In this document: in pieces, positions 8,060 to 41,744 of the stretch
How positions within the stretch are numbered: position 1 is the stretch's first letter
Layout of the letters: every line of letters begins with the position of its first letter
Source: an uncultured Bacteroidales bacterium
GTDB taxonomy: Bacteria; Bacteroidota; Bacteroidia; Bacteroidales; FEN-979
Length of the DNA: 64,000 bases
Reading direction: 5' to 3'
Assembly: GCA_903837605.1 (NCBI GenBank)
Contig: CAILVF010000041.1
Span: 11,524-75,523, forward strand
Position numbers and translations under genes: made by a program
Notes under the pieces: model-generated
The model's database searches: none
The model's input: the letters and a program-made list of their open reading frames with translations, nothing else
Told to the model about the DNA's origin: nothing

Positions 8060-8085
8060 CACAGGTTTTTCTGTTTTCCAAAATT

Positions 8086-8592: not shown

Positions 8593-8629
8593 GATGAAGT
8601 AGGGTTGTCTTGATTATCATTGTCTTTGT

Positions 8630-10087: not shown

Positions 10088-10098
10088 ATAACAGAAAT

Positions 10099-12381
10099 TT
10101 AATCTTTTATGCAATACATTCGATACGTACCATTTTCATTTTCAATCCCGTGAATATCATGTTCGAATCCGGGAAACTTATTATCAAAATCCTGGAGGGT
10201 TTTTAAATAGGCTAAAACAGGCTCATTTATCAAACCGGCCCGTTCACCACCCATAAGCAACGGAATTCCCGGCGGATATGGAACAATTCCTCCGGCCATT
10301 ATCCTTCCCTGGGATTGTTCAAGGGTAACCCTTTCCACATTGTTTTTAACAAGGCGGCTGTATGCCCCGGCCGGTGTCATCACCGGTTCGGGCAAGGACG
10401 AAAATGCTTCATCCAGCAATTGCAGCTGCCTTGAATCACGCTTGAATTCATGCATCTCACTCGCAAGCTGCGGCAGTGATTTCCCTTTGTAAACCCCGGG
10501 GTATTTTTCAACCAGGTCGGGAAAAACATCGTCCAGCATGGCATTTTCATCGTACAGGGACTTGAAACTGAAAAACCTTGTGGTAAGTGTTCCCCATTTT
10601 CCCTTGGTTATACCCATTGAAAAGAGGAAAAGTACGCTGTAATCGCCCGACTTCTCATTGATTATCCCTTCGCAATCGAGGTATTTGACCAGAAGTGCAG
10701 CCGGTATGCCCCATGGAGACAGGGATCCGTCACGCTCCACACCTGGTGTCAGTACGGTTACTTTGATAGGATCCAGCATGGCGTACCCGTCATCGATATT
10801 TCCGAAGCCATGCCAGTTTTCGCCGGGATGAAGAACCCAGCAGGAGGGTTCCCTGGTCAGTAATTCAATCGGGGCATCTGCATAATTGATACGCTTGCCG
10901 GTTGCCGGATTAGTGACCTCATCGGGTTGCCACATCTCAAACCACCAGTCTTTCGTATTATCGCTCATGATCTTCCTGCGTATCCTCGCCATGGTTGTAC
11001 GGAAGGTAACAGCTTCCATGATGCTTTCATCGGTAAGGGACTTCCCCATCGGGCCGTCCATCATCTTTGCCGAAACATCACAGGAGGCAATTATGGCATA
11101 GGAAGGTGAAGTAGATGTGTGCATCATGAAGGATTCATTGAACCTGTTGTGCTCTATAGGCTCACGCCCTTCTTTTACGTGCACCATTGAAGCCTGCGAA
11201 ATGGCAGCGAGCAGCTTATGGGTTGACTGTGAGGCAAACACTGTGGGAGCATCGGGATCCCTCACCCCGTCCCTCATTGCGTGGCGATCCCTGTACATGG
11301 GGTTGAACCTGGCATACGCGTACCAGGCTTCATCAAAATGAAGCCTGGGAACGATTTTCCCCAGCAGATGTTCCACTTCAACGGCATTATAACAAACCCC
11401 GTCGTAGGTGGAATTTGTTACGACTGCATATACCGGGGCGGCTGACTTGTCGGGGACCAGGGGGCATTCACTGATCTTTTTCCTGATGGTCAAGGCATTC
11501 ATCTGGTCTTTACGGATAGGTCCTATGATACCCAGGTGATTCCTTACCGGGATCATCCATACCGGCCTCGCACCTGTGAGGATGGTCGAATGCTCAAGCG
11601 ATTTATGGCAGTTACGGTCAATAAGCACCACATCTCCTTCCACGGCACAGGCCATGAAGATGATCTTGTTCGCTGTGGAAGTCCCATTGGTGACATAATA
11701 CGTGCGGTCGGCGCCAAACACTTTTGCGGCAAACCGTTCCCCGGCTCCTATGGCCCCTGAATGATCGAGAAGAGAGCCAAGTTCCCCCACGGAGATGGAG
11801 AGATCGGAACGAAACAACTGTTCCCCGAAGAAATTATAAAATATCCTCCCGGCAGGAGATTTCAGGAAAGCTGTACCACCTGTATGGCCGGGAGTATGCC
11901 AGGAATACTCAAAATCGTCGGCAAAATTGACCAGGGCTTCGAAAAACGGAGGCAACAGGCGGTTGCGGTACCTGCGGGCAGCCGCTTCGACACGCCCGGC
12001 AATAAAATCACGGGTATCTTCCAGTATCCAGAAATTTTCGGAAATGATCCTTTCTATTTCCAAAGGGATCGTCATCAGCACATCAGGCCTTATCGATAAA
12101 AAAATCGGGATCTCATGGTTCCTGCTCCGTATGTTCAGGATCAGTTTCTGCGCCAGGTTGCGGTTCTCTACGATCAATGGGTCCCAGTCAACGATCACCG
12201 CATCGAGTTCTGGCAACCTGATAATTCCTGACAAGGCCGATTCAAATGATTTCCATTCCGTTACATTGACTTCGATATCGTTCATCTTCCTGATCAGCTC
12301 ATGCATGGCATGGCCTCCGGGAGTGTCTTTCGACAATTCGTCATCCACGATGGCGATGCTCAGCCTTTCGTACAGATACAT
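10099..12381 (-). CDS. Biodegradative (large, wing-domain) Orn/Lys/Arg decarboxylase, PLP-dependent
   Basis: 760-aa ORF. CheY-like wing domain at the N-terminus (LSIAIVDDEL...DAVIVDWD). Motifs TPGHTGG, YYVTNGTSTANKI, and the PLP-lysine motif SQSTHKLL. Size is closest to the AdiA/CadA/SpeF class. Confidence 0.9.
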   Translation of the reverse strand: MYLYERLSIAIVDDELSKDTPGGHAMHELIRKMNDIEVNVTEWKSFESALSGIIRLPELDAVIVDWDPLIVENRNLAQKLILNIRSRNHEIPIFLSIRPDVLMTIPLEIERIISENFWILEDTRDFIAGRVEAAARRYRNRLLPPFFEALVNFADDFEYSWHTPGHTGGTAFLKSPAGRIFYNFFGEQLFRSDLSISVGELGSLLDHSGAIGAGERFAAKVFGADRTYYVTNGTSTANKIIFMACAVEGDVVLIDRNCHKSLEHSTILTGARPVWMIPVRNHLGIIGPIRKDQMNALTIRKKISECPLVPDKSAAPVYAVVTNSTYDGVCYNAVEVEHLLGKIVPRLHFDEAWYAYARFNPMYRDRHAMRDGVRDPDAPTVFASQSTHKLLAAISQASMVHVKEGREPIEHNRFNESFMMHTSTSPSYAIIASCDVSAKMMDGPMGKSLTDESIMEAVTFRTTMARIRRKIMSDNTKDWWFEMWQPDEVTNPATGKRINYADAPIELLTREPSCWVLHPGENWHGFGNIDDGYAMLDPIKVTVLTPGVERDGSLSPWGIPAALLVKYLDCEGIINEKSGDYSVLFLFSMGITKGKWGTLTTRFFSFKSLYDENAMLDDVFPDLVEKYPGVYKGKSLPQLASEMHEFKRDSRQLQLLDEAFSSLPEPVMTPAGAYSRLVKNNVERVTLEQSQGRIMAGGIVPYPPGIPLLMGGERAGLINEPVLAYLKTLQDFDNKFPGFEHDIHGIENENGTYRMYCIKD

Positions 12382-20302: not shown

Positions 20303-22582
20303 ATGAAAATGACAAGAACCGTGGTGACCCTCTCATGGGCCCTTGTATTCACAGCATTCTCAACACTGATACCCGGGCAGACAAACAATACTTATCAATG
20401 GGCTGATTCAGTATTGACTTTACAAGAGAAGATCGGACAGCTTAACCAATACAACGACGATTGGGATGCCACGGGCCCTGTCACGGTTGGCCCGAATAAA
20501 GCGGAACAGGTTAAAAATGGCGAATTGCAACCACTGCCAAATTGTGTAAGCGTTCAACGGACGCTTCAGGGGCAATCGATCGCTATGCAGTCACGGATAT
20601 CAACTCCTCTCTTCTTCGGTCAGGATGCAATACATGAATGCAAAACCACATTCCCTTTAGGGGAATCCACCAACCGGGATTTGGCTGTGATCGATCCTCC
20701 GTTCAAGGCAGCGGCAGATGCAGGGGTGGCAAGGAATATGACCTCCTTTAACGATCAGTCCTATTATAAGCTTACCACTTCGAACGGTTTGATAGTGGCC
20801 GTTTATGATGCGAAAAAAGGATGTGTTGATTATGTCTTCCCCCATATTTTCGCTACCATCGATTCGGCCACTTACGTCGATCCTTTCATGGGGAATGTTT
20901 TCCTCGACACGGGAGAGACCCCGTTGGAGACCGGTTACCAGGAAAATACACATGTGATCCGGGTTCAATACCCGTCGTTCTCGGTCCGCTACTTTGCCTC
21001 TTTCATACGTGGTGACAAGGTGTTTTATATTGCGATAAAGGGTAAGAGGGAGCAGGTTGATAAGATAAAATGGAGAGGTGAGCATGGTGCCGGTAAAACG
21101 CTCAGCGGGAATACCCAATTATGCAACCCGTTGCAGGATTTGCCGGTTCGGCTGCATGGAACCCTGATAAAAGGCACAACCACCCTCTGCCTGGATAAGG
21201 GAGTCGTTGAGAAGTACTTCCTCTTTTCTTTGACCGACGCTAATCATACAGATACAGCAATTATCTCTAAGGCTGTATCTGCTCTGACCAAAGATGGAAG
21301 TTCACTGGCCGATGAAGAGGTGAATTTCATGAAAAGGGTTTTCAAGCGGTGCAGGATCCCGGCAAACCTGACCCCCCTGGAGAGAAATGTGGTTGAGCAA
21401 TCGATCTCAGTTTTTAAAATGTCGCAGGTTTCCGATAACGAAGTGTTCCCCTTGTCGCACGGACAAATTCTGGCCTCTTTGCGGCCAGGATTGTGGCATG
21501 TGTCATGGGTGCGCGATGGCAGTTATGCCATCCAGTCGATGACTCGTTTGGGAATGTTTGATGAATCAAGGAAAGCATTGCAATTTATGCTCTGCGCCAA
21601 AGCCGGGAAATACCGTTCTTACAAGTATACTGACGGGAAAGTCTATGGCCCTGGTGTTGATTATCAGATTTCTCTTACACGTTATTATGGCAATGGGGAA
21701 GAGGAGTGCGACTACAACGAGTACGGACCCAATATCGAGTATGATGATTTCGGGCTGTTCCTCATTGCATACAGCGATTATATAGACCGAAGCGGCGACA
21801 CAGCATTCTTTCGCAGATGGAATACACTGGTTGGGGAGAAGGTGGCCGATGTTACGATTCATTGCATCGGTCCCGATTCCTTGATCATGGCAGATTCCGG
21901 TCCATGGGAACACCATTTGCAGAAGACACGCCACTACACTTTCACTTCGGCCGTCTGCGCCCGGGGGTTGTTTCAATATGCGCAGCTTCAAAAGAAATTC
22001 GGACTGCCAGGTGAGAAGTATGCCATGGCTGCCCAACGGGTTAAAAAGGGCATTGTGTCTCATATGCTTCGCCGGGAAGGGTATTTCATGGGGAATTCAA
22101 CGGATACAGCTCAATCGGAACACGAACATTTTGATGCCGGCGTTTATGAACTGTTTGCGAATGGCTTGATGACCGACAAAGCATTGTTTGCATCACATCT
22201 TAAAGGTTGCAATCGTGCTTTACATATTCCGGGTGATCGTCAGGGTTACATTCGGTTGAATAGTAATGATCCCTACGAGAATCAGGAGTGGGTATTTATC
22301 AACCTTAGAATTGCTAATGCCTGTTTGTTGTTCGGTGAAAGAGATCAAGCTGCCACATTGATCAACCATGTAACTTTCCAAGCCAGCCATAATTTTAATA
22401 CTGTTCCGGAAATGTACAGCAATAAAGACCAGATGACCAGGGTCCCTGCCAATTTTTACAATTGGAATATCTGGTGCAACTGCATCAGGCAGGAAAGCAA
22501 TCAGTACATTGGAGCCATACCGATGGTTGGATATGGATCGGGTGCTTACATTTTAGCTCTGTATCGTTTTTATGGCTGGTAA
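20303..22582 (+). CDS. Secreted GH15-family glycoside hydrolase (glucoamylase/glucodextranase/trehalase-like) with an N-terminal GH3-derived remnant
   Basis: 759-aa ORF with a signal peptide. Residues about 38-150 carry GH3 N-terminal blocks (LTLQEKIGQL, TPLFFGQDAIHECKTTFP, MTSFND). The rest is GH15-like (WHVSWVRDGSYAIQSM, GPWEHH, (alpha/alpha)6-type C-terminal half). Confidence 0.75.
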   Translation: MKMTRTVVTLSWALVFTAFSTLIPGQTNNTYQWADSVLTLQEKIGQLNQYNDDWDATGPVTVGPNKAEQVKNGELQPLPNCVSVQRTLQGQSIAMQSRISTPLFFGQDAIHECKTTFPLGESTNRDLAVIDPPFKAAADAGVARNMTSFNDQSYYKLTTSNGLIVAVYDAKKGCVDYVFPHIFATIDSATYVDPFMGNVFLDTGETPLETGYQENTHVIRVQYPSFSVRYFASFIRGDKVFYIAIKGKREQVDKIKWRGEHGAGKTLSGNTQLCNPLQDLPVRLHGTLIKGTTTLCLDKGVVEKYFLFSLTDANHTDTAIISKAVSALTKDGSSLADEEVNFMKRVFKRCRIPANLTPLERNVVEQSISVFKMSQVSDNEVFPLSHGQILASLRPGLWHVSWVRDGSYAIQSMTRLGMFDESRKALQFMLCAKAGKYRSYKYTDGKVYGPGVDYQISLTRYYGNGEEECDYNEYGPNIEYDDFGLFLIAYSDYIDRSGDTAFFRRWNTLVGEKVADVTIHCIGPDSLIMADSGPWEHHLQKTRHYTFTSAVCARGLFQYAQLQKKFGLPGEKYAMAAQRVKKGIVSHMLRREGYFMGNSTDTAQSEHEHFDAGVYELFANGLMTDKALFASHLKGCNRALHIPGDRQGYIRLNSNDPYENQEWVFINLRIANACLLFGERDQAATLINHVTFQASHNFNTVPEMYSNKDQMTRVPANFYNWNIWCNCIRQESNQYIGAIPMVGYGSGAYILALYRFYGW

Positions 22583-24948: not shown

Positions 24949-26277
24949 TTAATTATCCCTGATGCATCTCACTGAACATCCGCCTTTTTTAAAGGGGAAC
25001 AGAGAGTATATGTCGCTGTAACACCAGCGCAGGCTTCGGTACCATGCTGAATTGGTATTATAAGATGTGGCAGTCCAGAAACTGCAATCGTGATTGTTAT
25101 CCGGAGCCAGGCTCCATGCGCCTGTGGCAGTCCTGTAATTTGTGCAAAGTGCTGTAAACCCTGCAGCATTCAATCCATAGGTCGAATCCATGTATGCCCA
25201 TCGGGTATTGCAGCCTTCCTTCAAAATCCTTCCGATTTCAGTGCCTGTACCACCAAGAGCTGTTGTATCAATGGCAGGGTCAAGGAACTTCTCTAAAATA
25301 TTCCATTCATGGTTAGAAGCGACATGCCATCCTGAGGGGCAGATATTCCGGGAATTGGAGACTGCATAGAAATTGTACAGGTGACCGTAATATTGCCCTT
25401 CGGAAGGAAGATTATGATAATCACACCATGCCCCTGTGCTGAGATTCCCCCAGGCAGCGCTGTCGGTCACATTGGGAATATCCGACCCGTCCCGGTATTT
25501 GGTGGTTTTCAGGTTTTCCTCCATCCATAGTTGTGAACCTATCTGAACAACAGCATAATGATTGCTGTCGGCATCGGCGCATTGTACAAAATTGAAAGTC
25601 ACCGACTGACTTTGATGTGGAAAAAGCATGCTGACTGTTCTGAAATTTCCTGATTTTCCAGTTAGTTTCAGTGTGTCACCGGGATTGAAGAGCATGTTTA
25701 TTAATGATTTTGTTTTCAGGATGTCTTTCCGGGTTTCTGGTCCCTGTAAATAATGTCCCTTTTTTGTACCACCTTGAGGCCCTGTATTTATTACCGGCGG
25801 TTCGGCAGGACAGGATGCAGTGCTGATCAGTTTCGACGTATACAGATATTCATTCGATTCAATTTCCAGGTAGTACATACCTGAAGGAATCCCATACAGA
25901 ACAAACCCCTGGCGACCTTCCTGAAAGAACTCTTTTTTCTGCAGGATCATTTTCCCAGCCATATCGTATATCAGGATGCCGGCATTACCTGCTGCTGCCG
26001 CCTCAAATTCAACAGAACAATTTCCCGGTGAAGGATTCGGATAAATTTTCATTTGGTACTCATTTGGACGGAGTTCCCCATTGATCCCGACTATTGGTGT
26101 AAGGTTTAATGTATCTGATCCGGCGACGGTAAGGCTGGTACATTGTGACAGGTTCTCCACTTTTACCGAATCAATACTTGTGCCCGCACTTGTTCCTTCA
26201 AAATTGATTTTATAATTCTGTGCGTGACTTTGAAAAACGGCAATCATCATTAATATTGAAAAGGCAATAGTTTTCAT
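24949..26277 (-). CDS. Secreted protein with C-terminal FISUMP (Fibrobacter succinogenes major paralogous) domain and an internal T9SS-CTD-like beta-sandwich
   Basis: 442-aa ORF with a signal peptide. Residues about 77-152 read IYPNPSPGNCSVEFEA...GMYYLEIESNEYLYTSKLI. C-terminal IGSQLWMEENLKTTKYRDGS...GHLYNFYAV...CPSGWHVASNHEW matches the FISUMP pattern. Confidence 0.8.
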   Translation of the reverse strand: MKTIAFSILMMIAVFQSHAQNYKINFEGTSAGTSIDSVKVENLSQCTSLTVAGSDTLNLTPIVGINGELRPNEYQMKIYPNPSPGNCSVEFEAAAAGNAGILIYDMAGKMILQKKEFFQEGRQGFVLYGIPSGMYYLEIESNEYLYTSKLISTASCPAEPPVINTGPQGGTKKGHYLQGPETRKDILKTKSLINMLFNPGDTLKLTGKSGNFRTVSMLFPHQSQSVTFNFVQCADADSNHYAVVQIGSQLWMEENLKTTKYRDGSDIPNVTDSAAWGNLSTGAWCDYHNLPSEGQYYGHLYNFYAVSNSRNICPSGWHVASNHEWNILEKFLDPAIDTTALGGTGTEIGRILKEGCNTRWAYMDSTYGLNAAGFTALCTNYRTATGAWSLAPDNNHDCSFWTATSYNTNSAWYRSLRWCYSDIYSLFPFKKGGCSVRCIRDN

Positions 26278-29965: not shown

Positions 29966-30691
29966 ATGGAAATATCAATTCAAGGCGTTTCAAAGAAATA
30001 CAGGGGCAATAAATTCGGTCTGAAGGATTTTAACCTGGAGCTTAAAAACGGGATCATGGGCCTGATCGGCCCAAACGGAGCCGGGAAATCGACACTGATG
30101 CGGATCCTTGCAACGATCTCAAAGCCTACCGAAGGGAAGATCACTCTTGACGGCATGGATATCGTAAAGCACCCCGATACCGTGAGAAAAATACTCGGTT
30201 ACCTTCCCCAGGATTTCGGGGTATACCCCAATCTCACAGCCATGGAATTCCTTGAATACATTGCAGCAATAAAGGGGTTCACAGGAAAAGGCCTAAAACT
30301 AAGGATTGAAGCCCTGCTCGAAGAGCTCAACCTCACTACGGTCAGGAACAGGCCGATCGGGACTTACTCGGGAGGCATGAAGCAGAGAATAGGGATCGCC
30401 CAGGTACTGCTTGGTGATCCTAAGCTGCTGATCCTCGACGAACCTACAGTAGGCCTTGATCCCGAAGAGAGGGTGCGTTTCCGTAACCTGCTTACTGAAC
30501 TGTCGGGGGAACGTATCGTTATCCTTTCATCCCATATTGTCTCAGACATTGAGACAATGGCAAACGATGTCACCATAATTTTCCAGGGCAGGGTACTTGA
30601 ACACAGCTTCTCAACGGAGAAAGGTACTTTGGAAGACACCTACCTGAATGTTATTGCATTTGCAAAAAGCGGAGGGAACCATGTTCTCTGA
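29966..30691 (+). CDS. ABC transporter ATP-binding protein (ABC-2 type)
   Basis: 241-aa ORF. Walker A GPNGAGKST, signature YSGGMKQR, Walker B LLILDEPT, and H-loop SSHIV. Confidence 0.9.
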   Translation: MEISIQGVSKKYRGNKFGLKDFNLELKNGIMGLIGPNGAGKSTLMRILATISKPTEGKITLDGMDIVKHPDTVRKILGYLPQDFGVYPNLTAMEFLEYIAAIKGFTGKGLKLRIEALLEELNLTTVRNRPIGTYSGGMKQRIGIAQVLLGDPKLLILDEPTVGLDPEERVRFRNLLTELSGERIVILSSHIVSDIETMANDVTIIFQGRVLEHSFSTEKGTLEDTYLNVIAFAKSGGNHVL

Positions 30692-32270
30692 TTACTCGGC
30701 GGGAAGTATCTATCATATCGCCAGGGCCGATTTTCTGCAGAGGACCCGCAGCTATTATTTCCTTATTGCCATCGGCGTATGTGTGTTCATCATCTATTCA
30801 TTTGTCCCTGCTCTCAATGCAGGTTATACCATAGTATCCCTGGGCAACTACCGGGGATTCTATAACTCAGCCTGGATCGGGAGCATGGTTTCAATGTGTG
30901 TTCCTTTTTTTGCCCTGATAGGCTTTTATCTTATAAACAATGCTGTAAAACGGGATTTTGATACGGGTGTGGGACAGATCATCGCGACAACGCGTATCAA
31001 CAAGGTTCAATACCTAACCGGGAAAATGTTCAGTAATTTCGCAGTACTTCTGCTGATGCTTCTGGTTATTGCAGTGATGACCATAGTGATGTTCCTGGTC
31101 AGGGGAGAAACCACACAACTGGAATTGGGTAAATTGCTGTTACCACTTCTTATCATAACAGTTCCAGCCATGTTCATTATTGCAGCCCTGGCCCTGTTTT
31201 TCGATTCATTAAGCGGTCCGGGCAGGGGATTCACTAACATCGCTTATTTCTTTGTCTGGATATTCCTGGTTTCATCAGGCATGTTGTCGCAGGCGACAGA
31301 CGTTTTCGGCGTCGATACCTGCATGCTTGAAATACAGAGATCCGTCGCTGCTGCGCATCCAGACTGGAACGGGCAGCATGGAACCGGTATTCTAATCATC
31401 GATTCAATCGGGAGGTGCAAAGTGTTTACCTGGGAAGGAATGCACTGGACTGGTTGGATCATTCTTCAACGCATTTTCTGGATGTGCGCTGCGTTTGGAT
31501 TGGTCCTGCTTGCTTCCCTGCGTTTTAACAGGTTCGATGCTTCCGGGGTAAAAGAGAAAAAGCAGAAAAAAGCCTGGTTCCAAAAGACAGGGCCTGCTGT
31601 TGCTGCAGATATCACTGCGCCACTCCGCATCAGATACCGTGATCTGCCTGCGGCTGTGGCAAGGTTCAGTTTTTTCAGCCTGGTTAAGGCTGAGTTGCAA
31701 CTTATGCTCAGGGGCAGGTCAAAGTTCTGGTTGATCCTCACTGCCGGGTTGTTCATTGCAACCGTATTTGCTCCTCTTGATTTCTCATATAAATTTGGAT
31801 TGCCCTTGCTATGGTTCCTCCAGGTGCTTATCCTTTCGAAACTGGGATGCAGGGAACTGATAAACCGCTGCAATGAATACATATTTTCAGCTGCTTTCCC
31901 GCTTCGCCGTCAGTTACCCGCAACCCTTTGCTCTGCCATTTTAGTCATGCTGTCGCTGGCTGTCCCTGTATTGTTCAGGGAATTCTTCTCAGGTAATATG
32001 TATGCTGTCTATGCCATTATTGTGGGAGCAGTCTTCATTCCTGCCTTTGCAGTCTCCTCAGGGATTATAAGCGGGGGAAGCAAATTGTTTGAAGTAGTAT
32101 TTACGATTATGGTTTATGGCATCCTGTATTCCGTCCCTTACTTTGATTTTACAGGCGGAGTCCCGGGTTCAAAGGAACTGGGCATAGCAAATTACTTGCT
32201 TGCAACTGCTTTGATCCTGGTCATCCTGTCTTTCCTGGTCAGAAAAAGGCAGATCATGCACTCGGCTTAA
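30681..32270 (+). CDS. Multi-pass ABC-2-like permease / membrane protein
   Basis: About 529 aa starting at MFSDYSAGSIYHI, overlapping the ATPase stop by 11 nt. More than 10 hydrophobic helices. No specific family recognised. Confidence 0.65.
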   Translation: MFSDYSAGSIYHIARADFLQRTRSYYFLIAIGVCVFIIYSFVPALNAGYTIVSLGNYRGFYNSAWIGSMVSMCVPFFALIGFYLINNAVKRDFDTGVGQIIATTRINKVQYLTGKMFSNFAVLLLMLLVIAVMTIVMFLVRGETTQLELGKLLLPLLIITVPAMFIIAALALFFDSLSGPGRGFTNIAYFFVWIFLVSSGMLSQATDVFGVDTCMLEIQRSVAAAHPDWNGQHGTGILIIDSIGRCKVFTWEGMHWTGWIILQRIFWMCAAFGLVLLASLRFNRFDASGVKEKKQKKAWFQKTGPAVAADITAPLRIRYRDLPAAVARFSFFSLVKAELQLMLRGRSKFWLILTAGLFIATVFAPLDFSYKFGLPLLWFLQVLILSKLGCRELINRCNEYIFSAAFPLRRQLPATLCSAILVMLSLAVPVLFREFFSGNMYAVYAIIVGAVFIPAFAVSSGIISGGSKLFEVVFTIMVYGILYSVPYFDFTGGVPGSKELGIANYLLATALILVILSFLVRKRQIMHSA

Positions 32271-32313: not shown

Positions 32314-35300
32314 TCATTGCTTCATAAAAGATTTCAAACGGGAGAGGTAATCCATCCTGTTTGCATCGGAAAGCTGGTAGTCAAACTGACCTAACGACTG
32401 CTGAAGATCGAAATAATCCTTCAGCAGGGAATAATAGGAATTGTTTCGCGACATGCTGCTGACAATGAACTGCTGCTGGGCATCCAGCACATCGAGTATG
32501 CTTTTTTTCCCGAGCAGGTATTGATTGGTCACCAGTTCAAGGTTTTTACGGCCGGCGGTTTCGGCTAGCAGCCATTGCTGGTGGCCGAGGTAATCCGACA
32601 TTAATGTGGTGAGGTTACTGCGGATGACCGATTCGAGCTTATCCAGCTGTGACTGACGTTCACTCCTGCGCTGGGCCAGCGTGAGACGCGCCTTCTGCAT
32701 GGTGGCGTTATTCTTCAAACCCGTAAACAGGGGGAGCTCCACCCTGGCCTGGATGTTCCATGTATCGTCAGGAGCAGGGAAGGGCCAATCAGAAGGCATG
32801 GTCTGGTATAGCCGGTTCGTATAACTTCCCGAAGCGGTGGTATTCGGAATAAACCTCGAGATATTGGCCGAACGGGCAGCGCGCTGCTGGGCGGCTATCA
32901 GGAAGTCATACTGATGTATCACCGGTGATTTGTCTTTCCCTTCCCTGACCAGGAAATTACTTAGTTTATCAAGCCTGATAGGATCTTCGAGTATGCGGTA
33001 GAACTCCGGATCGGCTATGAGAAGGCCGGAGGTCTCAAGCTCCACATCAGCCAGGTTGTATGAAACGAGATACCTCACATGGATCAGCTCAAGCAGGGTA
33101 AATACCGACTGTGTCATGGTGGAATAGGCGTTGATCACATCCTTTTTGGCTTTGGCTACTTCGATCTGCCAGCGGTAAACTTCATTTTCCCCTACTGAAC
33201 CCGATTCTTTTTTCATTTTCGAGATCTCGAGGTTCGATCTGCTGATCATCAGGTTATTGAGTAACAACATGAAATTATGCCTGTTTTCGAGAATGCTCAG
33301 ATAAGCCCTGGCCGTCTGGTTTCCGATATCCAGCTTCCGGGTGTTCAGATCTTCAACCAATGCCTGCTGGTTCGAGGCAGTGACCCTGAGGTTGGACCAG
33401 ACAGGTTCTGAATAAACCGACTGTGAGATGCTTCCGGTAGCAGATACCATCTGGGGCGCCTGGTAATTTTTACTGTCGTTCAAAGCGCCTACGACATATG
33501 CATCGAGGCTGGGAAGCAGGCTGGATCGCGCAATATCGATATTTTTAGCGCCGGCTTTCACTTCGAACTTTTTCGCGACCAAAGCCTGGTTGCTGTCTAA
33601 AGCAAGTGCCATTATCTCCCTGAGCTGAACGAACTGAACCGAAGTATCCTGTTTGAGCAGGTCAACGATGGTAGCCTCTGTAAGAATATCCCAGGAAAGT
33701 ATTTTTAATCCGAGTTTGGCAAAGGTGGTCAGGTTCAGGAAAAGCCCCCTTCCCGACAGCAGTTCAACCGGGAGGGAAGAAGCATTCTCCCCTAGCAGTA
33801 CCTGCTGTATATCGAGCGCTATTCGTTTCGAAAGCCGGTCGATAAGCCGGGGATACAATGAAGCAAGCACACCTTCCTCCACATCGCCCTGGTCAAATCC
33901 GAAACTAGGCAGCTTACGGGCCGTCAGTGAATCGACGAGCATTTTGAATTGCCCTGAGGGCATTTTAAAAAGGGCGTCCACGTAAACTGCATTGGTTTCT
34001 TTTGGCAGGGCCCTGATGATTTCCAGAGCCGAAGTATCGCAAAGGATCATATTGATCCTGACCCCGTTGATGGTGTCGAAATTGGTGAAAGGCCGGTGTT
34101 CAGGATTCAGGATGTCCATATAATCCTTGCTCACCAGGATAGACAGGTCATCGAAATTCGCGATCTTTTTCATCTCGGCGAACTCATTTTCAATAGCGGG
34201 TTTTAGCTGGATGTAAGCCAGGTTATTAACCCCGCTGCTGCCATGGTTATAAGGAATACCCTGGAGCTGGTAATTCACGACAGGGGCTGCGATCACAGGT
34301 TTTGAAAGATTTTTCCGGTGACAGAGGTCATGGGCTGCTATTATGCCGAGCGACACAATGATGTCCACCTTATTATCGGCCAGCAGCCTGTCGTTGACAG
34401 CTTTTACGCTTCCCATGGTCCATTGGCCCGTGGTGAGTTCCGCAGGCTCGGTAAACACGATATCGACCTGTCCCGACATCAGGCTTCTGATCTCCTTCTC
34501 CATGGTGGAGAGGTAAAGTGAATTTGAGCGCGCCGGGCCGTCAAATACTATGGCGACGTGCACCGCATGCATATTGAATTCGAGAGGTTTCTGCGCCTTT
34601 GCCTGGGAGTTGGCAGCCAGGGAGAAGAATATCCCCAGGAGTATGGTAACCACAGCAGGCAGGGCAGCATGCCTGCTGCGTTTCCGTTCATCGCGTTTTT
34701 CCATAAATCGGGCCACTTTTTCATAAATGATGGGAACGACCACCAGGGTAAGGAACATGGAACTGGTAAGTCCCCCGATAAGGGCCCATGCCAGTCCGTT
34801 CTTCCATTCGGCACCGGCACCTGCAGCGGTGGCGATAGGCAGCATCCCGAAGACCATCGCGAAGGTGGTCATGAAAATCGGGCGGATACGCATCCTGCCC
34901 GCGTCGATAAGAGCGTCGAATATCGATTCGCCTTCCGACCTTTTTTCATTGGTACGGTCCACGATGAGTATGGCATTCTTGGCAACCAGTCCAACCATCA
35001 TGATAATGCCCAGGATAGAGAATACGTTGATTGTATTATGGGTGAATGCCAGTGCCAGGATAGCCCCTATAAGGGCTACAGGGATTGAGAACAGCACGAC
35101 AAAGGGGTAAATAAAGGAGTCATACAGGATAACCATGATGAAATATACGAAGATCACTGCAGCGACTAGGGCTGCGAAAAGACTCAGGAAGGAAGTCATC
35201 ATCTCTTCCTGGTCACCGCCGAAGCCGATAACTGTGCCCCCGGCTTTGGCGGTTCCCAACCTTGCAGAAAATGCCTGGACCACCGAACCCGCGGGGGAGC

Positions 35301-37752
35301 CGTCGGTATATGCGCTCACGGTAGTGAGGGCATTGCGGTTCTTGCGCTCCAGCTTCGTAGGCCCTGAGGCCTGGTATATGTTGGCGAACTGCTGCAGTTC
35401 AATGATCTTGTTCTTGCTGTTGATAAACGAAAGATGTGCGATGTCGTCAGGGTTGGTTCTGTCAAATTTATCAAGCGCCACGCGGATATCAAACTGGTTT
35501 GATCCGTCCCGGTATTTCGAGTCGTTATTCCCGGTGAGCGCTACCTGCAGGGCCGAACCCACATCGCTTACACTCAGCCCGAGGGCCGCCATCTTCTGAC
35601 GGTCGATCTCAACACGGGTTTCGGGGTTACCCCTGGTGGCAGAGAACCGAAGGTACGTAACGCCCGGAGTCAGTATAAGCGCTTTTGCGACCATGTCGGC
35701 CGACTTCATGATCGAGTCATAACTTATGCCGGTTATCTCTACCTGGACCGGAGCCGAGCTGGCTCCCCCGGTAAAGCCGATCTGGTTCACAAACACCTTC
35801 ACACCCGGGATCTTGTCGGTAAGTAATTTGACCTTTGAACCCAGTTCGGCTGTGGATAATGAACGCTTGTTTTTCGCACAGATTGAAACCACGATCTCAG
35901 TTTCGTTATCGGCACTTACCCCGTCGCTGCCTTTCCCCACATTGGTGAGGATGTTCGTTACTTCGGGCAGGGTTGAGATGATCTCTTCAATTTTCCGGCT
36001 CTGGCGGTTGTTGCTTTCAAGCGTGGTTCCCGGGGCGTATTCAAGGGCCACCGAGAACTGGCTGCGGTCGGTCTGTTTCATGAATTCAAACCCGGTCAGC
36101 CCGGCTGCGGGGATAATCAGGCTTATGATGAGGCCCGAGGCAACGACGAACAGCACCTTATAAGGATTTCCAAGGCTCCATCCGAGGATCATTGCGTACT
36201 TGCCGGTGAGCCATTTGAAGGCCCCTTCAAAGACCTTCCCGAAACGGTTCAGAAGGCTTTGGGAGTCTATGGATTCCAGTTTGGCAAAGCGGGATGCGAG
36301 GATGGGGGTGACTGTAAAAGAGACCAGAAGGCTGGTGAGGGTCGAAACGAGTATGATGATGGAGAATCCGCGGATGATATCGCCTATGAGCCCAGTGGTC
36401 AAGGCCAGGGGGACGAATACCACGATGTCGACAAAGGTGATGGAGATGGCTGCAAAACCGATCTCGTTGCGGCCCCTGATAGAGGCAGTGAGCTTGTCTT
36501 CACCCTTTTCGAGGTGATGGTAGATATTCTCAAGAACCACGATACTGTCGTCGACCAGGATACCAATTACCAGCGACAGAGCCAGCAAGGTGAACAGGTT
36601 GAGCGACATTCCGAAGATCCACATCACTACGAAGGCCGTGGTGAGAGAGCAGGGAATAGAAACCATGACGATGAGTGAAGTGCGCACCGAATGAAGGAAA
36701 AGGAACATCACGGCAGCCACCAGCAAAATAGCAAGCATAAGATCTTCCATCACGGCACGGGCAGCAGCCATAGTAAATATGCTCTGGTCGTCGGCTATGT
36801 CAAAATGAAGGCCCACTCCCTTATAATCGGCCTCAAGCACTTTTAATTCCTTTCGCAGCAGCTCGCATACCTTGACCATATTGGCATCGTTTTGCTTCTG
36901 GATCTCAAGCCCCAGTGAATTGATGCCGTTGAACCTGCTGATGAGGGTAGGGTCAACGGTTGCATCATGGATCTCGGCGATATCGCGAAGACGGATCTCG
37001 CCACCCTCTTTGGAATAGCCTACGACCAGGTTCTTCATTTCCTCAAGGGAAGTGAACTTGCCTGCAACACGAACCACGTACTGGTGAAGGGGATCTTTTA
37101 ATTTTCCTGTCGGGAAATCCAGATTGGCTGCATTGATGAAGTTGGCAACCTGGCTTATAGACAGGGAGTAGGACCTGACTTTCTGGGCATCGATGTTAAC
37201 CTTTATCTCCCTTTTCAGCCCGCCGTTAATACTGATATTTCCAACACCCTGCACCCTTGAAAGACGGGGTTTGATCTGGTCGTCGACCAGGGTGTAAAAC
37301 CTGGCAGGGGACAGGCTGGAAGTAAGTGAAAGCCTCAACACCGGGATCTGGCTCACCGAATAGGTCAGTAAAGAAGGGGTTTTAATCTCTTTAGGCAGGG
37401 TTGAGAGAATTTCATTCACCTTCCTTTGTACATCCTGAACAGCGACATTAATGGTTGCATTCCTGTAAAATTCTATGGCGATGAGTGAAAGTCCTTCGTA
37501 TGAAGTGGAGCTGATATTCTTCACTTTCTCGATCCCCGAAAGGGCATCTTCAATAGGACGGGTGACATTGTTTTCCACTTCGCCAGGTGAAGCTCCGGGG
37601 TATTGGGTTTTGACGGTGACATAAGGCTGATCTATCTTGGGCAGCAGCTCGTAACCAAGCTGGTAATACCCGAAAACCGCCAGCATTCCCAGGGCCAGAA
37701 AGATCACAATGATAAATGACGGGCGTTTTATCGCTAATTCGGTTATCGACAT
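32314..37752 (-). CDS. RND efflux permease fused in frame to a signal/TM segment, a periplasmic-binding-like domain and a TolC-family outer-membrane factor
   Basis: Uninterrupted 1812-aa ORF. Residues 1-1016 are a complete 12-TM RND pump (MSITELAIKRPSFIIVIF..., VLENI, ...VVVPIIYEKVARF). Residues 1017-1051 are MEKRDERKRSRHAALPAVVTILLGIFFSLAANSQA. Residues from about 1372 are OEP/TolC-like (LREIMALALDSNQALVAKKFEVKAGAKNIDIARSSLLPSLDAY...). Confidence 0.8.
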   Translation of the reverse strand: MSITELAIKRPSFIIVIFLALGMLAVFGYYQLGYELLPKIDQPYVTVKTQYPGASPGEVENNVTRPIEDALSGIEKVKNISSTSYEGLSLIAIEFYRNATINVAVQDVQRKVNEILSTLPKEIKTPSLLTYSVSQIPVLRLSLTSSLSPARFYTLVDDQIKPRLSRVQGVGNISINGGLKREIKVNIDAQKVRSYSLSISQVANFINAANLDFPTGKLKDPLHQYVVRVAGKFTSLEEMKNLVVGYSKEGGEIRLRDIAEIHDATVDPTLISRFNGINSLGLEIQKQNDANMVKVCELLRKELKVLEADYKGVGLHFDIADDQSIFTMAAARAVMEDLMLAILLVAAVMFLFLHSVRTSLIVMVSIPCSLTTAFVVMWIFGMSLNLFTLLALSLVIGILVDDSIVVLENIYHHLEKGEDKLTASIRGRNEIGFAAISITFVDIVVFVPLALTTGLIGDIIRGFSIIILVSTLTSLLVSFTVTPILASRFAKLESIDSQSLLNRFGKVFEGAFKWLTGKYAMILGWSLGNPYKVLFVVASGLIISLIIPAAGLTGFEFMKQTDRSQFSVALEYAPGTTLESNNRQSRKIEEIISTLPEVTNILTNVGKGSDGVSADNETEIVVSICAKNKRSLSTAELGSKVKLLTDKIPGVKVFVNQIGFTGGASSAPVQVEITGISYDSIMKSADMVAKALILTPGVTYLRFSATRGNPETRVEIDRQKMAALGLSVSDVGSALQVALTGNNDSKYRDGSNQFDIRVALDKFDRTNPDDIAHLSFINSKNKIIELQQFANIYQASGPTKLERKNRNALTTVSAYTDGSPAGSVVQAFSARLGTAKAGGTVIGFGGDQEEMMTSFLSLFAALVAAVIFVYFIMVILYDSFIYPFVVLFSIPVALIGAILALAFTHNTINVFSILGIIMMVGLVAKNAILIVDRTNEKRSEGESIFDALIDAGRMRIRPIFMTTFAMVFGMLPIATAAGAGAEWKNGLAWALIGGLTSSMFLTLVVVPIIYEKVARFMEKRDERKRSRHAALPAVVTILLGIFFSLAANSQAKAQKPLEFNMHAVHVAIVFDGPARSNSLYLSTMEKEIRSLMSGQVDIVFTEPAELTTGQWTMGSVKAVNDRLLADNKVDIIVSLGIIAAHDLCHRKNLSKPVIAAPVVNYQLQGIPYNHGSSGVNNLAYIQLKPAIENEFAEMKKIANFDDLSILVSKDYMDILNPEHRPFTNFDTINGVRINMILCDTSALEIIRALPKETNAVYVDALFKMPSGQFKMLVDSLTARKLPSFGFDQGDVEEGVLASLYPRLIDRLSKRIALDIQQVLLGENASSLPVELLSGRGLFLNLTTFAKLGLKILSWDILTEATIVDLLKQDTSVQFVQLREIMALALDSNQALVAKKFEVKAGAKNIDIARSSLLPSLDAYVVGALNDSKNYQAPQMVSATGSISQSVYSEPVWSNLRVTASNQQALVEDLNTRKLDIGNQTARAYLSILENRHNFMLLLNNLMISRSNLEISKMKKESGSVGENEVYRWQIEVAKAKKDVINAYSTMTQSVFTLLELIHVRYLVSYNLADVELETSGLLIADPEFYRILEDPIRLDKLSNFLVREGKDKSPVIHQYDFLIAAQQRAARSANISRFIPNTTASGSYTNRLYQTMPSDWPFPAPDDTWNIQARVELPLFTGLKNNATMQKARLTLAQRRSERQSQLDKLESVIRSNLTTLMSDYLGHQQWLLAETAGRKNLELVTNQYLLGKKSILDVLDAQQQFIVSSMSRNNSYYSLLKDYFDLQQSLGQFDYQLSDANRMDYLSRLKSFMKQ
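33669..34572 (-). other. Periplasmic-binding-protein-like (ABC_sub_bind-like) domain preceding the TolC-like part
   Basis: Alternating beta-alpha pattern: HVAIVFDGP, VDIIVSLGIIAAHDL, KPVIAAPVVN, SSGVNNLAYI, LSILVSKDY, NAVYVDALF. Assigned by resemblance only. Confidence 0.4.
34600..34704 (-). other. Internal in-frame ATG plus Sec-signal-peptide-like / 13th TM segment at the RND-OMF junction
   Basis: Codon 1017 is ATG (34704-34702). It is followed by a basic n-region KRDERKRSRH, a 19-residue hydrophobic core AALPAVVTILLGIFFSLAA, and an SQA|K small-residue -3/-1 site. Confidence 0.6.
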
Positions 37753-37767: not shown

Positions 37768-38817
37768 TTATTTGACAATGATAACCTTCAGGTTGTTGGA
37801 AAGATTGTTCTGGCCGCTGGTCACTACCATCTCCCCTTCTTCAAGCCCGTTCAGCACTTCAAGCAGCTGTCCCGATTCACGCCCAATGGTTATATTCCTT
37901 AAGGAAGCTATATTTCCTTTGATTACGAAAACCTGGGCATTCTTAACACTCCCGATCAGGGCGTCGCGGGAAATTGCGATAGCGTCGCGGGAAGTGATGG
38001 AGGTGAAATTAATCCGCCCGAACATCCCTCCTTTCAATGGGAAAGCGGCGCTGTTCGGAAGATGGATCTCAACAGGATACGTATGGGCTTCGTCGGCTTT
38101 GGAAGCGATATTGTCGACATGGCCCAAAAACCGGTGGCCCGGGTAGACATCGGTTGTGATCTCCACGCTGTCACCGGGATGAAGCACAAAGGCGTCTTTT
38201 TCAGAGATGCTCACTTTCACCTTCATGGTGGAGATATCAACGATGTTCCCGATTGATGAATTCTGCTGGATATAGGAACCCTCGTTGACTTTTTTAGTGT
38301 TGATGGTGCCGTTGATCGGGGCTTTGACCTTGGTGTCGTCAAGGGCTCTTTTGGCCCTGGTCAGGTCATTCTCGGCCGCCTGCATATCGAGCCTGGAAAT
38401 GTCGAGTTGGGATGCCGAGATAGAGTTTTGCTCGTACAGGGTCTTGTTGCGGTCGAAATCGCGTTTTGCTTTGAAATAATTGATCTCCTGCCTGGCCAGA
38501 TCCGATTTTATAATGGCATCATCGATCTCAACAAGTACAGTGCCTTTTTTGACCTGGTCGCCTATCTTGAAATTCAATCGCGTTATCATCCCTTTTGCTT
38601 CGGATATGATTTCCACATCATTTTCGGGATCTATCAGCCCGACCATGCTTACCAGGTTGGTCAGCGACTTTTTTATTACCGTGTCGATAGTGACAGGAAC
38701 ATTGCTGAGCACCTCCTGCCTGCCTGAATTTTCTTTTTTATGACCCAGAAAAAAAAGCCCTGCGATGATCAGGATCACGACCACCGAAGCGATAATGGTA
38801 AAATAGAGTTTTTTCAT
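37768..38817 (-). CDS. RND efflux periplasmic adaptor (membrane fusion protein, HlyD/AcrA family)
   Basis: 349-aa ORF. N-terminal anchor helix, lipoyl/hairpin/beta-barrel blocks (GDQVKKGTVLVEIDD, coiled-coil QLDISRLDMQAAENDLTRAKRALDDTKVKAPINGTI). Located 15 nt upstream of the RND start. Confidence 0.9.
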   Translation of the reverse strand: MKKLYFTIIASVVVILIIAGLFFLGHKKENSGRQEVLSNVPVTIDTVIKKSLTNLVSMVGLIDPENDVEIISEAKGMITRLNFKIGDQVKKGTVLVEIDDAIIKSDLARQEINYFKAKRDFDRNKTLYEQNSISASQLDISRLDMQAAENDLTRAKRALDDTKVKAPINGTINTKKVNEGSYIQQNSSIGNIVDISTMKVKVSISEKDAFVLHPGDSVEITTDVYPGHRFLGHVDNIASKADEAHTYPVEIHLPNSAAFPLKGGMFGRINFTSITSRDAIAISRDALIGSVKNAQVFVIKGNIASLRNITIGRESGQLLEVLNGLEEGEMVVTSGQNNLSNNLKVIIVK

Positions 38818-38934: not shown

Positions 38935-38942
38935 CAAAGATA
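38935..38942 (-). promoter_or_regulatory. -7 promoter box TATCTTTG for the efflux operon
   Basis: The reverse complement of CAAAGATA matches TAnnTTTG, about 118 nt upstream of the adaptor ATG, in the 240-nt gap after the response regulator. Confidence 0.45.
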
Positions 38943-39057: not shown

Positions 39058-39759
39058 CTATTTTGCAGGAACATTAAAAATGAAACCGACTCCAAATACA
39101 TTCTCAATACTTAAATCCGGATCTTCCTTAAGGTATTTACGTATTTTAGTGATAAACACATCCAGGCTGCGGCCGAAAAAATAGTCGTTCTCACCCCACA
39201 GGTCTTTTAACAGTTCTTCACGTTTTATTACAGTATTCGGGTGTGCGGATAAATAGTTTAGTATATCACTTTCCTTTTCGGTGATTCGCCTTGCTTTACC
39301 AGCAATGGCCAGGGATTGATTATGAAAGTCAAATGTATATTCACCGATTTTAATAGTTCCGGTCCTCACTTCACTTATATTTTCTGGGATCCTGCGGATA
39401 ACAGCTTTAATTTTCCAGAGCAATTCCTCCTCATCAAATGGCTTGGTGATATAATCATCAGCACCCAAACCATATCCTTTTAATTTATATTCCCTTAAAG
39501 ACTTTGCCGTAATAAAAATGACGGGTATCTTTTTATCCTTTAACCTGATCTCTTTTGCAAGGGTAAACCCATCCATTTTCGGCATCATGACATCCAGCAA
39601 GCACAGATCAAAAGGATTGAACTGAAATGCTTTTAACGCCAACTCCCCGTCTTTACAAAGTTTCACATCAAACCCTTCGGCATCCAGGTAATCAACTAAA
39701 AGGACTCCTAAGTTGAGATCATCCTCCGCAAGTAATATTTTGAACCGTTTCTCAGGCAT
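39058..39759 (-). CDS. OmpR/PhoB-family response regulator (REC plus winged-helix)
   Basis: The start is set at MPEKRFKILLAEDD, 2 nt after the kinase stop. Phospho-acceptor context DLCLLDVMMPKMDG. C-terminal trans_reg_C-like LTEKESDILNYL...VFGVGFIF. Confidence 0.9.
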   Translation of the reverse strand: MPEKRFKILLAEDDLNLGVLLVDYLDAEGFDVKLCKDGELALKAFQFNPFDLCLLDVMMPKMDGFTLAKEIRLKDKKIPVIFITAKSLREYKLKGYGLGADDYITKPFDEEELLWKIKAVIRRIPENISEVRTGTIKIGEYTFDFHNQSLAIAGKARRITEKESDILNYLSAHPNTVIKREELLKDLWGENDYFFGRSLDVFITKIRKYLKEDPDLSIENVFGVGFIFNVPAK

Positions 39760-41005
39760 TGGGAAATGTAATAATGAATGATGTCCCTTTTCCTTTTTCG
39801 CTCTGAAGTTCAATTGTTCCTCCATGCAATTCAACAACCTTTTTTACGTAAGCCAAACCGAGACCAAATCCCTTCACATCATGTACGTCCCCGGTAGGGA
39901 CCCGGAAAAATTTATCGAACACTTTCTTTTGATATTCCTTTTCAATACCGATACCATCATCGGAAACAGCAACAACTAAATTGTAACCAATATTGGATGT
40001 TTGAATGCATAATTCAGGTTTTTCCCCGGAATATTTAACGGCGTTGTCAATCAGGTTGCAAAACGAATTTATCAGATGTGTACGGTCTCCAATTACCATA
40101 AACTGCCCGGCATCCAGGTTTAATTTTATGTTCCCATGTTTGTTTTCGATCTGCAAGCTGATACATTTTAATGCTGCATTGATCAACTCGTGAAAATCCA
40201 ATTCCGATTTGTGTAAAGGGATCTCGCCTCTTTCAAGTGCAGTCATGCTTAACACCTGCTCAACCTGAAGCCTTAACTTTTCATTCTCTTCAATAATTAT
40301 TCCCGAGTAATGTTTTATTTTATCTCCTTCCTTAATGGCAGAATCCTTTAGTATCATCTTTCCTGCCAGGGCAATGTTTGTTAAAGGTGTTTTAAATTCA
40401 TGGGTCATATTGTTTAAAAAGTCGGTGGTATGCTCCGAAATTTCTTTCTCCCTGATAAATGACAGAATTGTTCGCCAGAACATGATAAGCACGATAATTA
40501 TCAGGATGACTGAAGTGATGAAAAGTGTTCCCATCTCCGCGATAATGAATTGCTTTTTCTCAGGGAAAATAAGTTTCAATTCTACTTCTTTTTTACTGCC
40601 CACATCTTCCAAAGGTTTATTATAAATGAGGTTTGCAGAACGGCTTTCATTTAACGTTGTCAGGTATCCAGGTTTTGCGACTACAAAAGAATATTCAATA
40701 TGAATGTTGTAAAACTTCATATAATGAGTTAGCAAGGAATCAATCTTATGGACTTCATCCTTTCCCAATTTCACAGCTATTCCCGGGGTACTATCCATTT
40801 CGACGCAAGCTCCGATTTTTATACAGGTTTCTTTATCAGAACGGAGAGCGTCGGTTGTTCTTGAAAGAACCATATTGGCCTTTTCATTAAACAACTCTTC
40901 TTTTATTTTGGCTGTCTGTAAGATCCAATTCACCTGAATTATCAGCACCATTGCTAATGCGATGGATGAAATTGCGATAAGCAGCCAGGTTCGGTTTGGT
41001 TTCAT
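39752..41005 (-). CDS. Two-TM sensor histidine kinase (HisKA plus HATPase_c)
   Basis: The start is set at MKPNRTWLLIAISSIALAMVL. H-box THEFKTPLTNI, N-box LIDNAVKY, G-boxes DDGIGI and GFGLGLAYVKKVVELHGG. Confidence 0.85.
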   Translation of the reverse strand: MKPNRTWLLIAISSIALAMVLIIQVNWILQTAKIKEELFNEKANMVLSRTTDALRSDKETCIKIGACVEMDSTPGIAVKLGKDEVHKIDSLLTHYMKFYNIHIEYSFVVAKPGYLTTLNESRSANLIYNKPLEDVGSKKEVELKLIFPEKKQFIIAEMGTLFITSVILIIIVLIMFWRTILSFIREKEISEHTTDFLNNMTHEFKTPLTNIALAGKMILKDSAIKEGDKIKHYSGIIIEENEKLRLQVEQVLSMTALERGEIPLHKSELDFHELINAALKCISLQIENKHGNIKLNLDAGQFMVIGDRTHLINSFCNLIDNAVKYSGEKPELCIQTSNIGYNLVVAVSDDGIGIEKEYQKKVFDKFFRVPTGDVHDVKGFGLGLAYVKKVVELHGGTIELQSEKGKGTSFIITFPNA

Positions 41006-41109
41006 TTGATTCCACAAAATTAGCCATTTAAAATGGCTTTTAAGCACCAATAACAAGTCATTAACAACTCAATAACCAGTCAATAACAGGACTCCAGTTG
41101 ATTTAAAAC

Positions 41110-41141: not shown

Positions 41142-41744
41142 ATGAAAAATATACTTATCGCTATGTTCGTGCTTGGTCTCACGTTATCCTGTATCGTTGA
41201 CAATGGAGGGCAGCCTGCTGAAAACGGAAAGCTTTCCGGCCATGCATCATACAGGGACGCATACACATCGGCCAATTATGCAGATGCGGGATGTTTGATT
41301 TATGCAATCAGCGAAGCTGATTTCAGATCATCGGGATATGGCGACCTTAAAAATGTGATTGAAAGGTTCCAGGGATACAAATACGATTATCTGCTGTCAA
41401 TTTATAATTCAATAGATCCTTTCAGAAATAGCAAAATGCGTGACAATTTTGACACATTGTCGGATTTTACCTTCAAATTCATCAGAGGATTTAAAAAATT
41501 AACCGGTATCGTAAAAGCGGTAACAGACGGTACTGGAAATTATACTTTAAGTTTAAAGCCGGGCAAATATTACCTTCTGGTTATTTCAGGCAGTGTAAAA
41601 AGCGATAACCTTGCTGAATCCAAAGGCAATATCGGTTATAAAATCGTGGATGTAAACTCAGCCCAGGAGACAATTCAGAATATGATCTTTCAGAAGTATG
41701 ATATGACCGGGATCATGGTGGCCAGAAACCTTTCAGGATGTTAA
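41142..41744 (+). CDS. Hypothetical lipoprotein
   Basis: 200-aa ORF. Lipobox LGLTLSC. The segment TDGTGNYTLSLKPGKYYLLVIS suggests a carboxypeptidase-regulatory-like beta-sandwich. Confidence 0.6.
   Translation: MKNILIAMFVLGLTLSCIVDNGGQPAENGKLSGHASYRDAYTSANYADAGCLIYAISEADFRSSGYGDLKNVIERFQGYKYDYLLSIYNSIDPFRNSKMRDNFDTLSDFTFKFIRGFKKLTGIVKAVTDGTGNYTLSLKPGKYYLLVISGSVKSDNLAESKGNIGYKIVDVNSAQETIQNMIFQKYDMTGIMVARNLSGC

Follow-up and report, generated by a model that had tools for sequence, protein, structure and literature searches.

Tripartite efflux pumps have been described as three separately made proteins, and the matching of channel to pump in amount and place has been inferred mostly from a few Proteobacteria. 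AcrAB-TolC and MexAB-OprM consist of a pump of the resistance-nodulation-division (RND) superfamily (HAE-1 type), an adaptor encoded directly upstream of it and a channel with the TolC fold, the outer-membrane factor (OMF). The same three modules occur in a 64,000-nucleotide (nt) stretch of DNA from an uncultured Bacteroidales bacterium (contig CAILVF010000041.1), referred to below as the window. Here, however, pump and channel are encoded by one open reading frame (ORF), the signal peptide is internal, and the channel carries an N-terminal binding-protein domain of ~300 amino acids (aa). The clade with this fused gene hard-wires the synthesis of pump and channel at 1:1. We conclude that the fusion architecture is robustly real, and suggest that its likely mechanism would return the system to a conventional assembly.

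The fused gene is a single ATG-started ORF of 1812 aa plus stop, located at window positions 32314-37752 on the minus strand, as are all features below unless stated otherwise; by its reading frame and Pfam matches it comprises an RND module, a linker, a periplasmic binding protein (PBP)-like domain and an OMF. The first-pass annotation of this DNA had reported an uninterrupted frame of 5439 nt whose first ~1016 codons form a complete RND permease, and both statements held: the ORF was recovered at exactly 32314..37752 with no stop at the junction, and the HAE-1-like module (aa 1-1016; 34705-37752) matched Pfam ACR_tran over essentially the full model (813 bits, aa 4-1013, model positions 2-1020 of 1021). 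It also matched the NCBIfam profile NF033617 (RND_permease_2) with 742 bits, which is under the strict subfamily cut-off of 1250 set by NCBI. The motifs ILVDDS, LVAKNAILIV and RMRIRPIF are present in the RND part, and by comparison with AcrB we take them to be the Asp-Asp pair of transmembrane helix 4 (TM4), the Lys of TM10 and the Arg of TM11 that make up the proton relay. A crude hydropathy scan gave the TM clusters expected of an RND protein, with TM9 merged with TM8.

The RND chain is not ended after TM12, but is continued by 796 further aa including a 13th hydrophobic segment. At the junction the DNA reads AAA GTG GCC CGA TTT ATG GAA AAA CGC without a stop, which gives the protein sequence KVARF/MEKRDE, the ATG being at 34704. 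The linker of 37 aa between the permease and the PBP part (aa 1017-1053) begins with a basic cytoplasmic stretch, MEKRDERKRSRH (aa 1017-1028; 34669-34704), the former n-region of a signal peptide; this is followed by the hydrophobic core AALPAVVTILLGIFFSLAA (aa 1029-1047; 34612-34668), predicted from hydropathy to be TM13 or an internal h-region, and by the c-region NSQAKA (aa 1048-1053; 34594-34611), with predicted cleavage by signal peptidase I (SPase I) after A1053. The core is the sole extra hydrophobic segment after the RND part in the hydropathy scan, with nothing hydrophobic further downstream. Profile, fold and comparative evidence agree with the earlier description of one frame for a complete RND pump and a TolC-type factor, joined by a 19-residue, N-in/C-out hydrophobic segment. 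Because the signal-peptide-like segment is internal, with 1016 RND residues preceding it in the translated chain, the OMF is not a separate pre-protein; there is no Cys at +1.

The ~300-aa domain that had been noticed between the RND and TolC parts is present at ~aa 1063-1362 (33667-34566) and was identified by Pfam, AlphaFold2 and Foldseek as having the fold of PF04392 (ABC_sub_bind), the Pfam match at aa 1122-1351 scoring 29.4 bits, above the gathering score of 25.9. The last ~440 codons, previously assigned to the TolC/OEP family by their repeat pattern, form the OMF (aa 1373-1812 plus stop; 32314-33636), which matched OEP of Pfam in two stretches (99 bits) and the NCBIfam profiles TIGR01844 (TolC) and TIGR01845 (NodT), and which shows the TolC fold. 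An AlphaFold2 model of aa 1017-1812, built from a 12-sequence alignment (mean pLDDT 76.8, pTM 0.65), consists of one N-terminal helix, an alpha/beta binding-protein fold (query residues 47-346) and the OMF, the latter with two repeats of two beta-strands plus long helices each, four strands in total. In Foldseek searches against PDB the OMF matched TolC and ST50 with TM-scores of 0.80-0.83 (target-normalised), the range over channels of the TolC/ST50/OprM type being ~0.7-0.83, and the middle domain matched 3LFT (the L-Trp complex), 3LKV and CD0873 (6HNI) at 0.71-0.76. A profile search against PDB sequences returned the same families (TolC, E=5e-35). In the family alignment, the invariant polar residues are D55, D110, R130, K135, S157, N161, Y164 and R294 (numbering of the 796-aa query). 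The PF04392 domain is fused to the OMF in RND operons at every locus, with no ABC importer genes in the operon; ABC genes do occur at 29966-32270, on the other strand, but they are of the ABC-2 exporter type and are found at one orthologous locus only (L014).

It could be suspected that an error of sequencing or assembly, such as a missed stop or an indel, produced the fusion, or that it is a recent functionless pseudogene-like accident. Our comparison set comprised 16 species-level genome loci, from a scan in which each GTDB species was represented by one genome, together with 12 loci from metagenomes and several more contigs; these amount to ~28 distinct loci that are 52-96% identical. The nearest are Bacteroidales or Bacteroidota metagenome-assembled genomes, and the lakes ELA and Lac Pavin are among the sources of such genomes. 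At 16 of 16 genome loci the PBP-OMF frame continues upstream without a stop into the RND gene, giving fused proteins of 1812-1825 aa in the 12 loci with a complete gene, and the junction is open as well at 12 of 12 metagenome loci and in the contigs L001-L003. A search with aa 1017-1812 independently returned single products that combine ACR_tran, ABC_sub_bind and OEP (P0004, P0005, P0007 and P0009). Between the VPIIYEK and DG motifs the linker measures 67, 71, 72 or 78 aa across loci, which indicates that all indels are in frame. At 90% identity the exact window protein clusters in a group of 27, in which many members have a length of 1812-1813 aa and one is found on 35 contigs. Thus, neither a stop nor a frameshift at the junction, the possibility left open by the first-pass annotation, was found in any orthologous locus examined, and the orthologs turned out to be fused rather than split.

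Substitution rates point in the same direction. In pairwise comparisons with the three closest genomes (dS 0.24-0.5), the ratio of nonsynonymous to synonymous divergence (dN/dS) was 0.03-0.05 for the RND module, 0.20-0.34 for the linker, 0.08-0.11 for the PBP domain and 0.04-0.10 for the OMF. All four segments are under purifying selection, and every part is therefore a maintained coding sequence, while the synonymous divergence from the closest relatives shows that these are independent genomes. The suspicion of artefact or decay finds some ground in two related metagenome contigs in which the gene is frameshifted elsewhere, within the RND region (L001) or the PBP domain (L003). Set against this, the junction is open at every locus across many samples and assemblers, dN/dS stays at 0.03-0.11 across all three domains, and the loci are marked as independent by their synonymous divergence. 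An error or a recent accident is hardly credible on these grounds, and the ~28 open-junction loci, the cluster membership and dN/dS led us to reject an assembly or sequencing artefact.

The frameshifts themselves are single ones, located between the frames L001:6575-8053 and 8001-12035 and between L003:1683-5240 and 5311-7119 (IQLKP/IENEF); they are sequencing errors or recent inactivation, and the junction is intact in both contigs. A further locus, L021 (SACF01000029.1), is labelled Alphaproteobacteria, and its junction and linker peptide are two residues off that of the Bacteroidales locus L016, both being 54% identical to the query; this contig is probably mis-binned.

The origin of the fusion can be traced among homologs of its PBP-OMF part. 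An exhaustive HMMER search with aa 900-1812 was run against 1.84 billion cluster representatives, and among the best 150 matches 148 were stand-alone proteins, one was fused (P0035, 1812 aa, confirmed by Pfam) and one was the kinase fusion P0104 described below. Most of the 148 are ~750-880 aa long and align to the PBP-OMF part only, at 25-37% identity; a profile search with the broad alignment A1 in a word-indexed database added only ordinary OMFs. This stand-alone PF04392-OMF family (P0036-P0182; loci L004-L008) amounts to at least 148 clusters at 50% identity, with E values from 1e-79 to 1e-158, and one of its members, P0073, has an extra SH3_3 domain in front. Of three stand-alone genes examined, two (P0010 in L004-L006 and P0013 in L007) come immediately after adaptor and RND genes, with a stop and 21-22 nt between RND and PBP-OMF; the third (P0017) is located between two adaptor-RND pairs. 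The stand-alone proteins are homologous to the fused ones over the whole PBP-OMF part and share their gene order, but they differ by the stop codon, the spacer, an ATG of their own and shorter hydrophobic cores.

Of 119 stand-alone representatives, 113 have an N-terminal signal peptide according to a rule-based site finder; its median length is 24 aa, Ala occupies -1 in 104, the residue at +1 is most often Gln, and the median distance from its end to beta-strand 1 of the PBP domain is 7 aa. In the fused proteins the hydrophobic segment sits at this same position relative to beta-strand 1, which indicates that the fusion arose by loss of the RND stop codon. In the ancestral layout, adaptor and RND genes were followed by a stop, ~21 nt and a PBP-OMF gene whose product had an N-terminal signal peptide; the stop was lost in one Bacteroidales/Prolixibacteraceae clade, so that the signal peptide became internal. 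The same comparison identifies the hydrophobic segment as the Sec signal peptide with which the product of the downstream gene began when that gene was still separate, and shows that the PBP domain was part of the channel protein before the fusion. A different arrangement is found in P0104 (L025:1-3574; GCA_035549935.1, DASZPT010000133.1), in which 1190 aa comprise a Hanks-type Ser/Thr kinase (aa 84-346), a hydrophobic segment, the sequence AEA/Q, PF04392 and an OMF, with an adaptor gene downstream; the evidence is one contig of 4.7 kb, whose end truncates the ORF. P0104 is a second, independent case in which a cytoplasmic domain has been fused N-terminally to PBP-OMF.

What becomes of the fused chain is suggested by its linker. 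At all 20 loci first analysed the linker has a basic stretch with 5-9 Lys and Arg, a hydrophobic core and a site obeying the -3/-1 rule, with Ala at -1 in each of the 20 by the site finder, and in 19 of them the distance from a Gln to the strand-1 motif downstream is exactly 12 residues. Metagenomes added four more linker variants, all ending in A/Q, such that A-x-A/Q is present in 23 of 24 distinct linkers, while the remainder of the linker is only 31-46% identical in distant pairs. In the window the predicted site is AKA/Q, that is A1053/Q1054, between nt 34594 and 34593, and Q1054 (codon 34591-34593) would be the new N-terminus after cleavage. In Bacteroidetes most SPase I substrates have Gln at +1, which is then cyclised to pyroglutamate (PMC5837995; PMC10653852). 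Taken together with this rule, the conserved A/Q suggests cleavage at A1053/Q1054.

We therefore consider it likely, from the reading frame and the conserved site, that the gene encodes a 13-TM polyprotein that is cut at A1053/Q1054 to release the PBP-OMF part for insertion into the outer membrane. Where the first-pass annotation had offered a cleaved polyprotein, an inner-membrane-tethered factor and internal initiation without choosing between them, the evidence now favours the first and leaves the other two less favoured. Because there is no stop codon, every ribosome that makes a pump reads on into the channel, and the full-length chain is synthesised. After TM12 the chain would be in the cytoplasm, the basic stretch being kept inside, and the former signal peptide would insert N-in/C-out as a 13th TM helix, which would start the Sec-dependent export of the ~760-aa PBP-OMF part. 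SPase I would then cut the conserved A-x-A/Q site and the new N-terminal Gln would probably be cyclised, as in other Bacteroidetes substrates of this enzyme. The freed PBP-OMF would be brought to the outer membrane and trimerise, and the pump would retain TM13 as a C-terminal appendage. The end state would be a conventional tripartite pump of RND trimer, adaptor and OMF trimer, in which pump and channel are obligatorily 1:1 and made at the same place, and in which a PBP domain hangs in the periplasm from the N-terminus of each channel protomer. Ligand sensing or docking are guesses at the role of this domain.

Several observations weigh against cleavage. The site calls rest on a hand-written -3/-1 rule, and the loci are phylogenetically related, so that counts such as 20 out of 20 do not represent independent events. 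At the fixed site, L014 has Gly and L017 has Thr at -1, and Thr is a poor residue for SPase I. Furthermore, the hydrophobic core is longer in the fused than in the stand-alone proteins, with a median of 19 versus 14 uncharged residues (Mann-Whitney p ~8e-7, uncorrected for relatedness), and cores of TM length are typical of uncleaved signal anchors. Finally, an ATG, GTG or TTG lies within 5 codons of the RND end at every locus, so that internal initiation could contribute. As to the core, its greater length in the fused proteins (34612-34668 in the window; L001-L037) may be an adaptation to a permanent 13th TM helix of the pump.

It would be tempting to take this core as an uncleaved tether, by which TM13 anchors the PBP domain at the inner membrane while the OMF sits in the outer membrane, so that one polypeptide is in both; in a variant, the OMF part would never get to the outer membrane. 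In addition to the TM-length core, which is significantly longer than that of stand-alone signal peptides, the unrelated kinase-TM-PBP-OMF architecture of P0104 would fit, as it too puts a cytoplasmic domain before the module. However, A-x-A/Q and the fixed Gln at +1 are kept amid a variable linker, and an uncleaved anchor would need neither. Only ~12 residues separate the site from the first PBP strand, and the N-terminus of the OMF is well over 100 Å from the inner membrane if the dimensions of AcrAB-TolC apply, a distance over which, as a rough estimate, a domain of ~60 Å plus two short linkers would be stretched. We also know of no case in which BAM or TAM inserts a barrel subunit to which an inner-membrane tether is still attached. 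We therefore regard a tether as quite unlikely. Very unlikely, in our view, is its most far-reaching form, an envelope-spanning machine from pump to exit duct, in which an uncleaved chain would combine 13 inner-membrane helices with an outer-membrane barrel segment and the PBP domain would serve as a periplasmic strut or ligand-controlled coupler; the TM-length core and P0104 speak for this reading, and A-x-A/Q counts against it as well.

A different explanation is that the channel is made mainly by internal initiation at or near the junction (ATG 34704), so that it would have a signal peptide of its own, and that the read-through product is tolerated. A start-capable codon is present within 5 codons of the RND end at 20 of 20 loci, the resulting N-terminus would be a normal, very basic signal peptide, and the conserved cleavage site would be explained equally well. 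Nevertheless, the candidate start is variable: there is an ATG at index 10/11 in one clade, and only the Met of YEKM or a TTG in the other. Nor is the Met at the junction conserved, being replaced by CTT in L001, by CTG in L002 and by Leu or Ile in the clade with 52-59% identity. Moreover, if the channel were made in this way, a stop in the linker would be almost neutral and would be expected to come back, yet none is found in ~28 loci, and this lack of re-split genes argues that a stop at the junction is not neutral; nor would indels need to be in frame. TAnnTTTG, the -7 promoter element of the Bacteroidetes type, has no match within ~760 nt upstream of the junction, which, as a motif search, is weak evidence. 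Lastly, the full-length chain would be made anyway, and its fate would still need cleavage or a tether. Considering all these points, we find internal initiation unlikely as the main source of the channel, and prefer the cleaved polyprotein.

The window contains a perfect 9-bp inverted repeat, CAGCAGGCA...TGCCTGCTG (34653-34678), 26-51 nt downstream of the junction ATG. A conserved mRNA hairpin at the junction, which might act in pausing or internal initiation, was considered and rejected, as L014, despite its 96% identity, and all other loci lack it; since the stem is kept in no ortholog, it is probably due to chance.

The periplasmic adaptor, or membrane fusion protein (MFP), is a protein of 349 aa with a TM anchor at its N-terminus and no lipobox Cys (TIGR01730, 229 bits; HlyD_D23); its gene (37768-38817) ends 15 nt before the fused ORF begins, and in 17 of 17 orthologous loci the fusion has an adaptor gene immediately upstream. 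As a sigma-70 promoter and terminator scan is uninformative for Bacteroidota, it was replaced by a search for TAnnTTTG, in which a match at 38935-38942, ~125 nt upstream of the adaptor start, is the candidate operon promoter; it is a motif match only, one of 19 on the minus strand across the 64 kb. Between the adaptor gene and the ORF at 41142-41744 lie an RprY-like response regulator and a histidine kinase (39058-41056). They were considered as members of the system and rejected since they are absent at orthologous loci: in L014, the homolog of ORF 41142-41744 (orf200) abuts the adaptor gene with no such pair between, and the pair is either an insertion in the lineage of the window or a deletion in L014. 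With the TTG start under which it is listed, the regulator ORF shares 86 nt with the kinase gene, and it matches its profile only from residue 29 on, so that its true start is probably further downstream.

More generally, the window is Bacteroidota-like, with several proteins bearing the Por_Secre_tail domain of the type IX secretion system (T9SS) and one Reg_prop/Y_Y_Y hybrid sensor. Por_Secre_tail is a sorting domain that is normally C-terminal; in a 442-aa ORF at 24949-26277 it is found at aa 78-151, N-terminal to Fib_succ_major (aa 244-440), and this ORF may be two genes read as one or have a mis-set start. For the 759-aa ORF at 20303-22582 on the plus strand, there was no Pfam match at E<=1e-5.

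If cleavage is confirmed, the fused gene would provide a bacterial polyprotein whose products reside in two different membranes, and a natural system in which to ask whether co-synthesis helps pump assembly. The fused genes are annotated by NCBI as 'efflux RND transporter permease subunit', so that genomes carrying them may be scored, wrongly, as having no cognate channel. Beyond the fusion, TolC-type channels with an N-terminal solute-binding-protein domain constitute a large and apparently undescribed class, which raises the possibility of ligand-responsive exit ducts. Neither a natural RND-OMF fusion nor a PBP-OMF protein (PF04392 plus TolC) turned up in the literature that we searched, the coverage of which is incomplete, and the review PMC8277102, in the part consulted, makes no mention of a natural RND-OMF fusion.

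Among described systems, several share one feature or another with this locus. The solute-binding proteins 3LFT, CD0873 (6HNI) and 3LKV have the fold and the Pfam family, PF04392, in common with the PBP domain, but they are receptors of ABC importers, whereas the domain here is covalently attached to an efflux channel. The Bucl8 channel of Burkholderia reportedly has a C-terminal extension, a surface-exposed collagen-like region, unlike the extra domain here, which is N-terminal, periplasmic and of the PF04392 fold. Bucl8 provides a case of a TolC-family channel of an efflux operon with an extra non-channel domain (PMC7682875). The 13th helix built into the pump could be compared with small single-TM partners such as AcrZ.

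As for the mechanism, the closest precedent known to us is FbcH of Bradyrhizobium japonicum, which, according to work by Thöny-Meyer and colleagues from ~1989-1991, is reportedly a cytochrome b/c1 polyprotein that is cut into two mature subunits. As in the fused efflux gene, a polytopic inner-membrane protein, an internal signal sequence and a periplasm-facing protein are said to be joined in one ORF. The two cases differ in that both products of FbcH stay in the inner membrane, whereas the part released here would cross the periplasm and enter the outer membrane, and in that cleavage has reportedly been demonstrated by experiment for FbcH, whereas here it is proposed from the ORF and the site. 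Once the proposed cleavage has taken place, the assembled efflux machine would be a conventional one.

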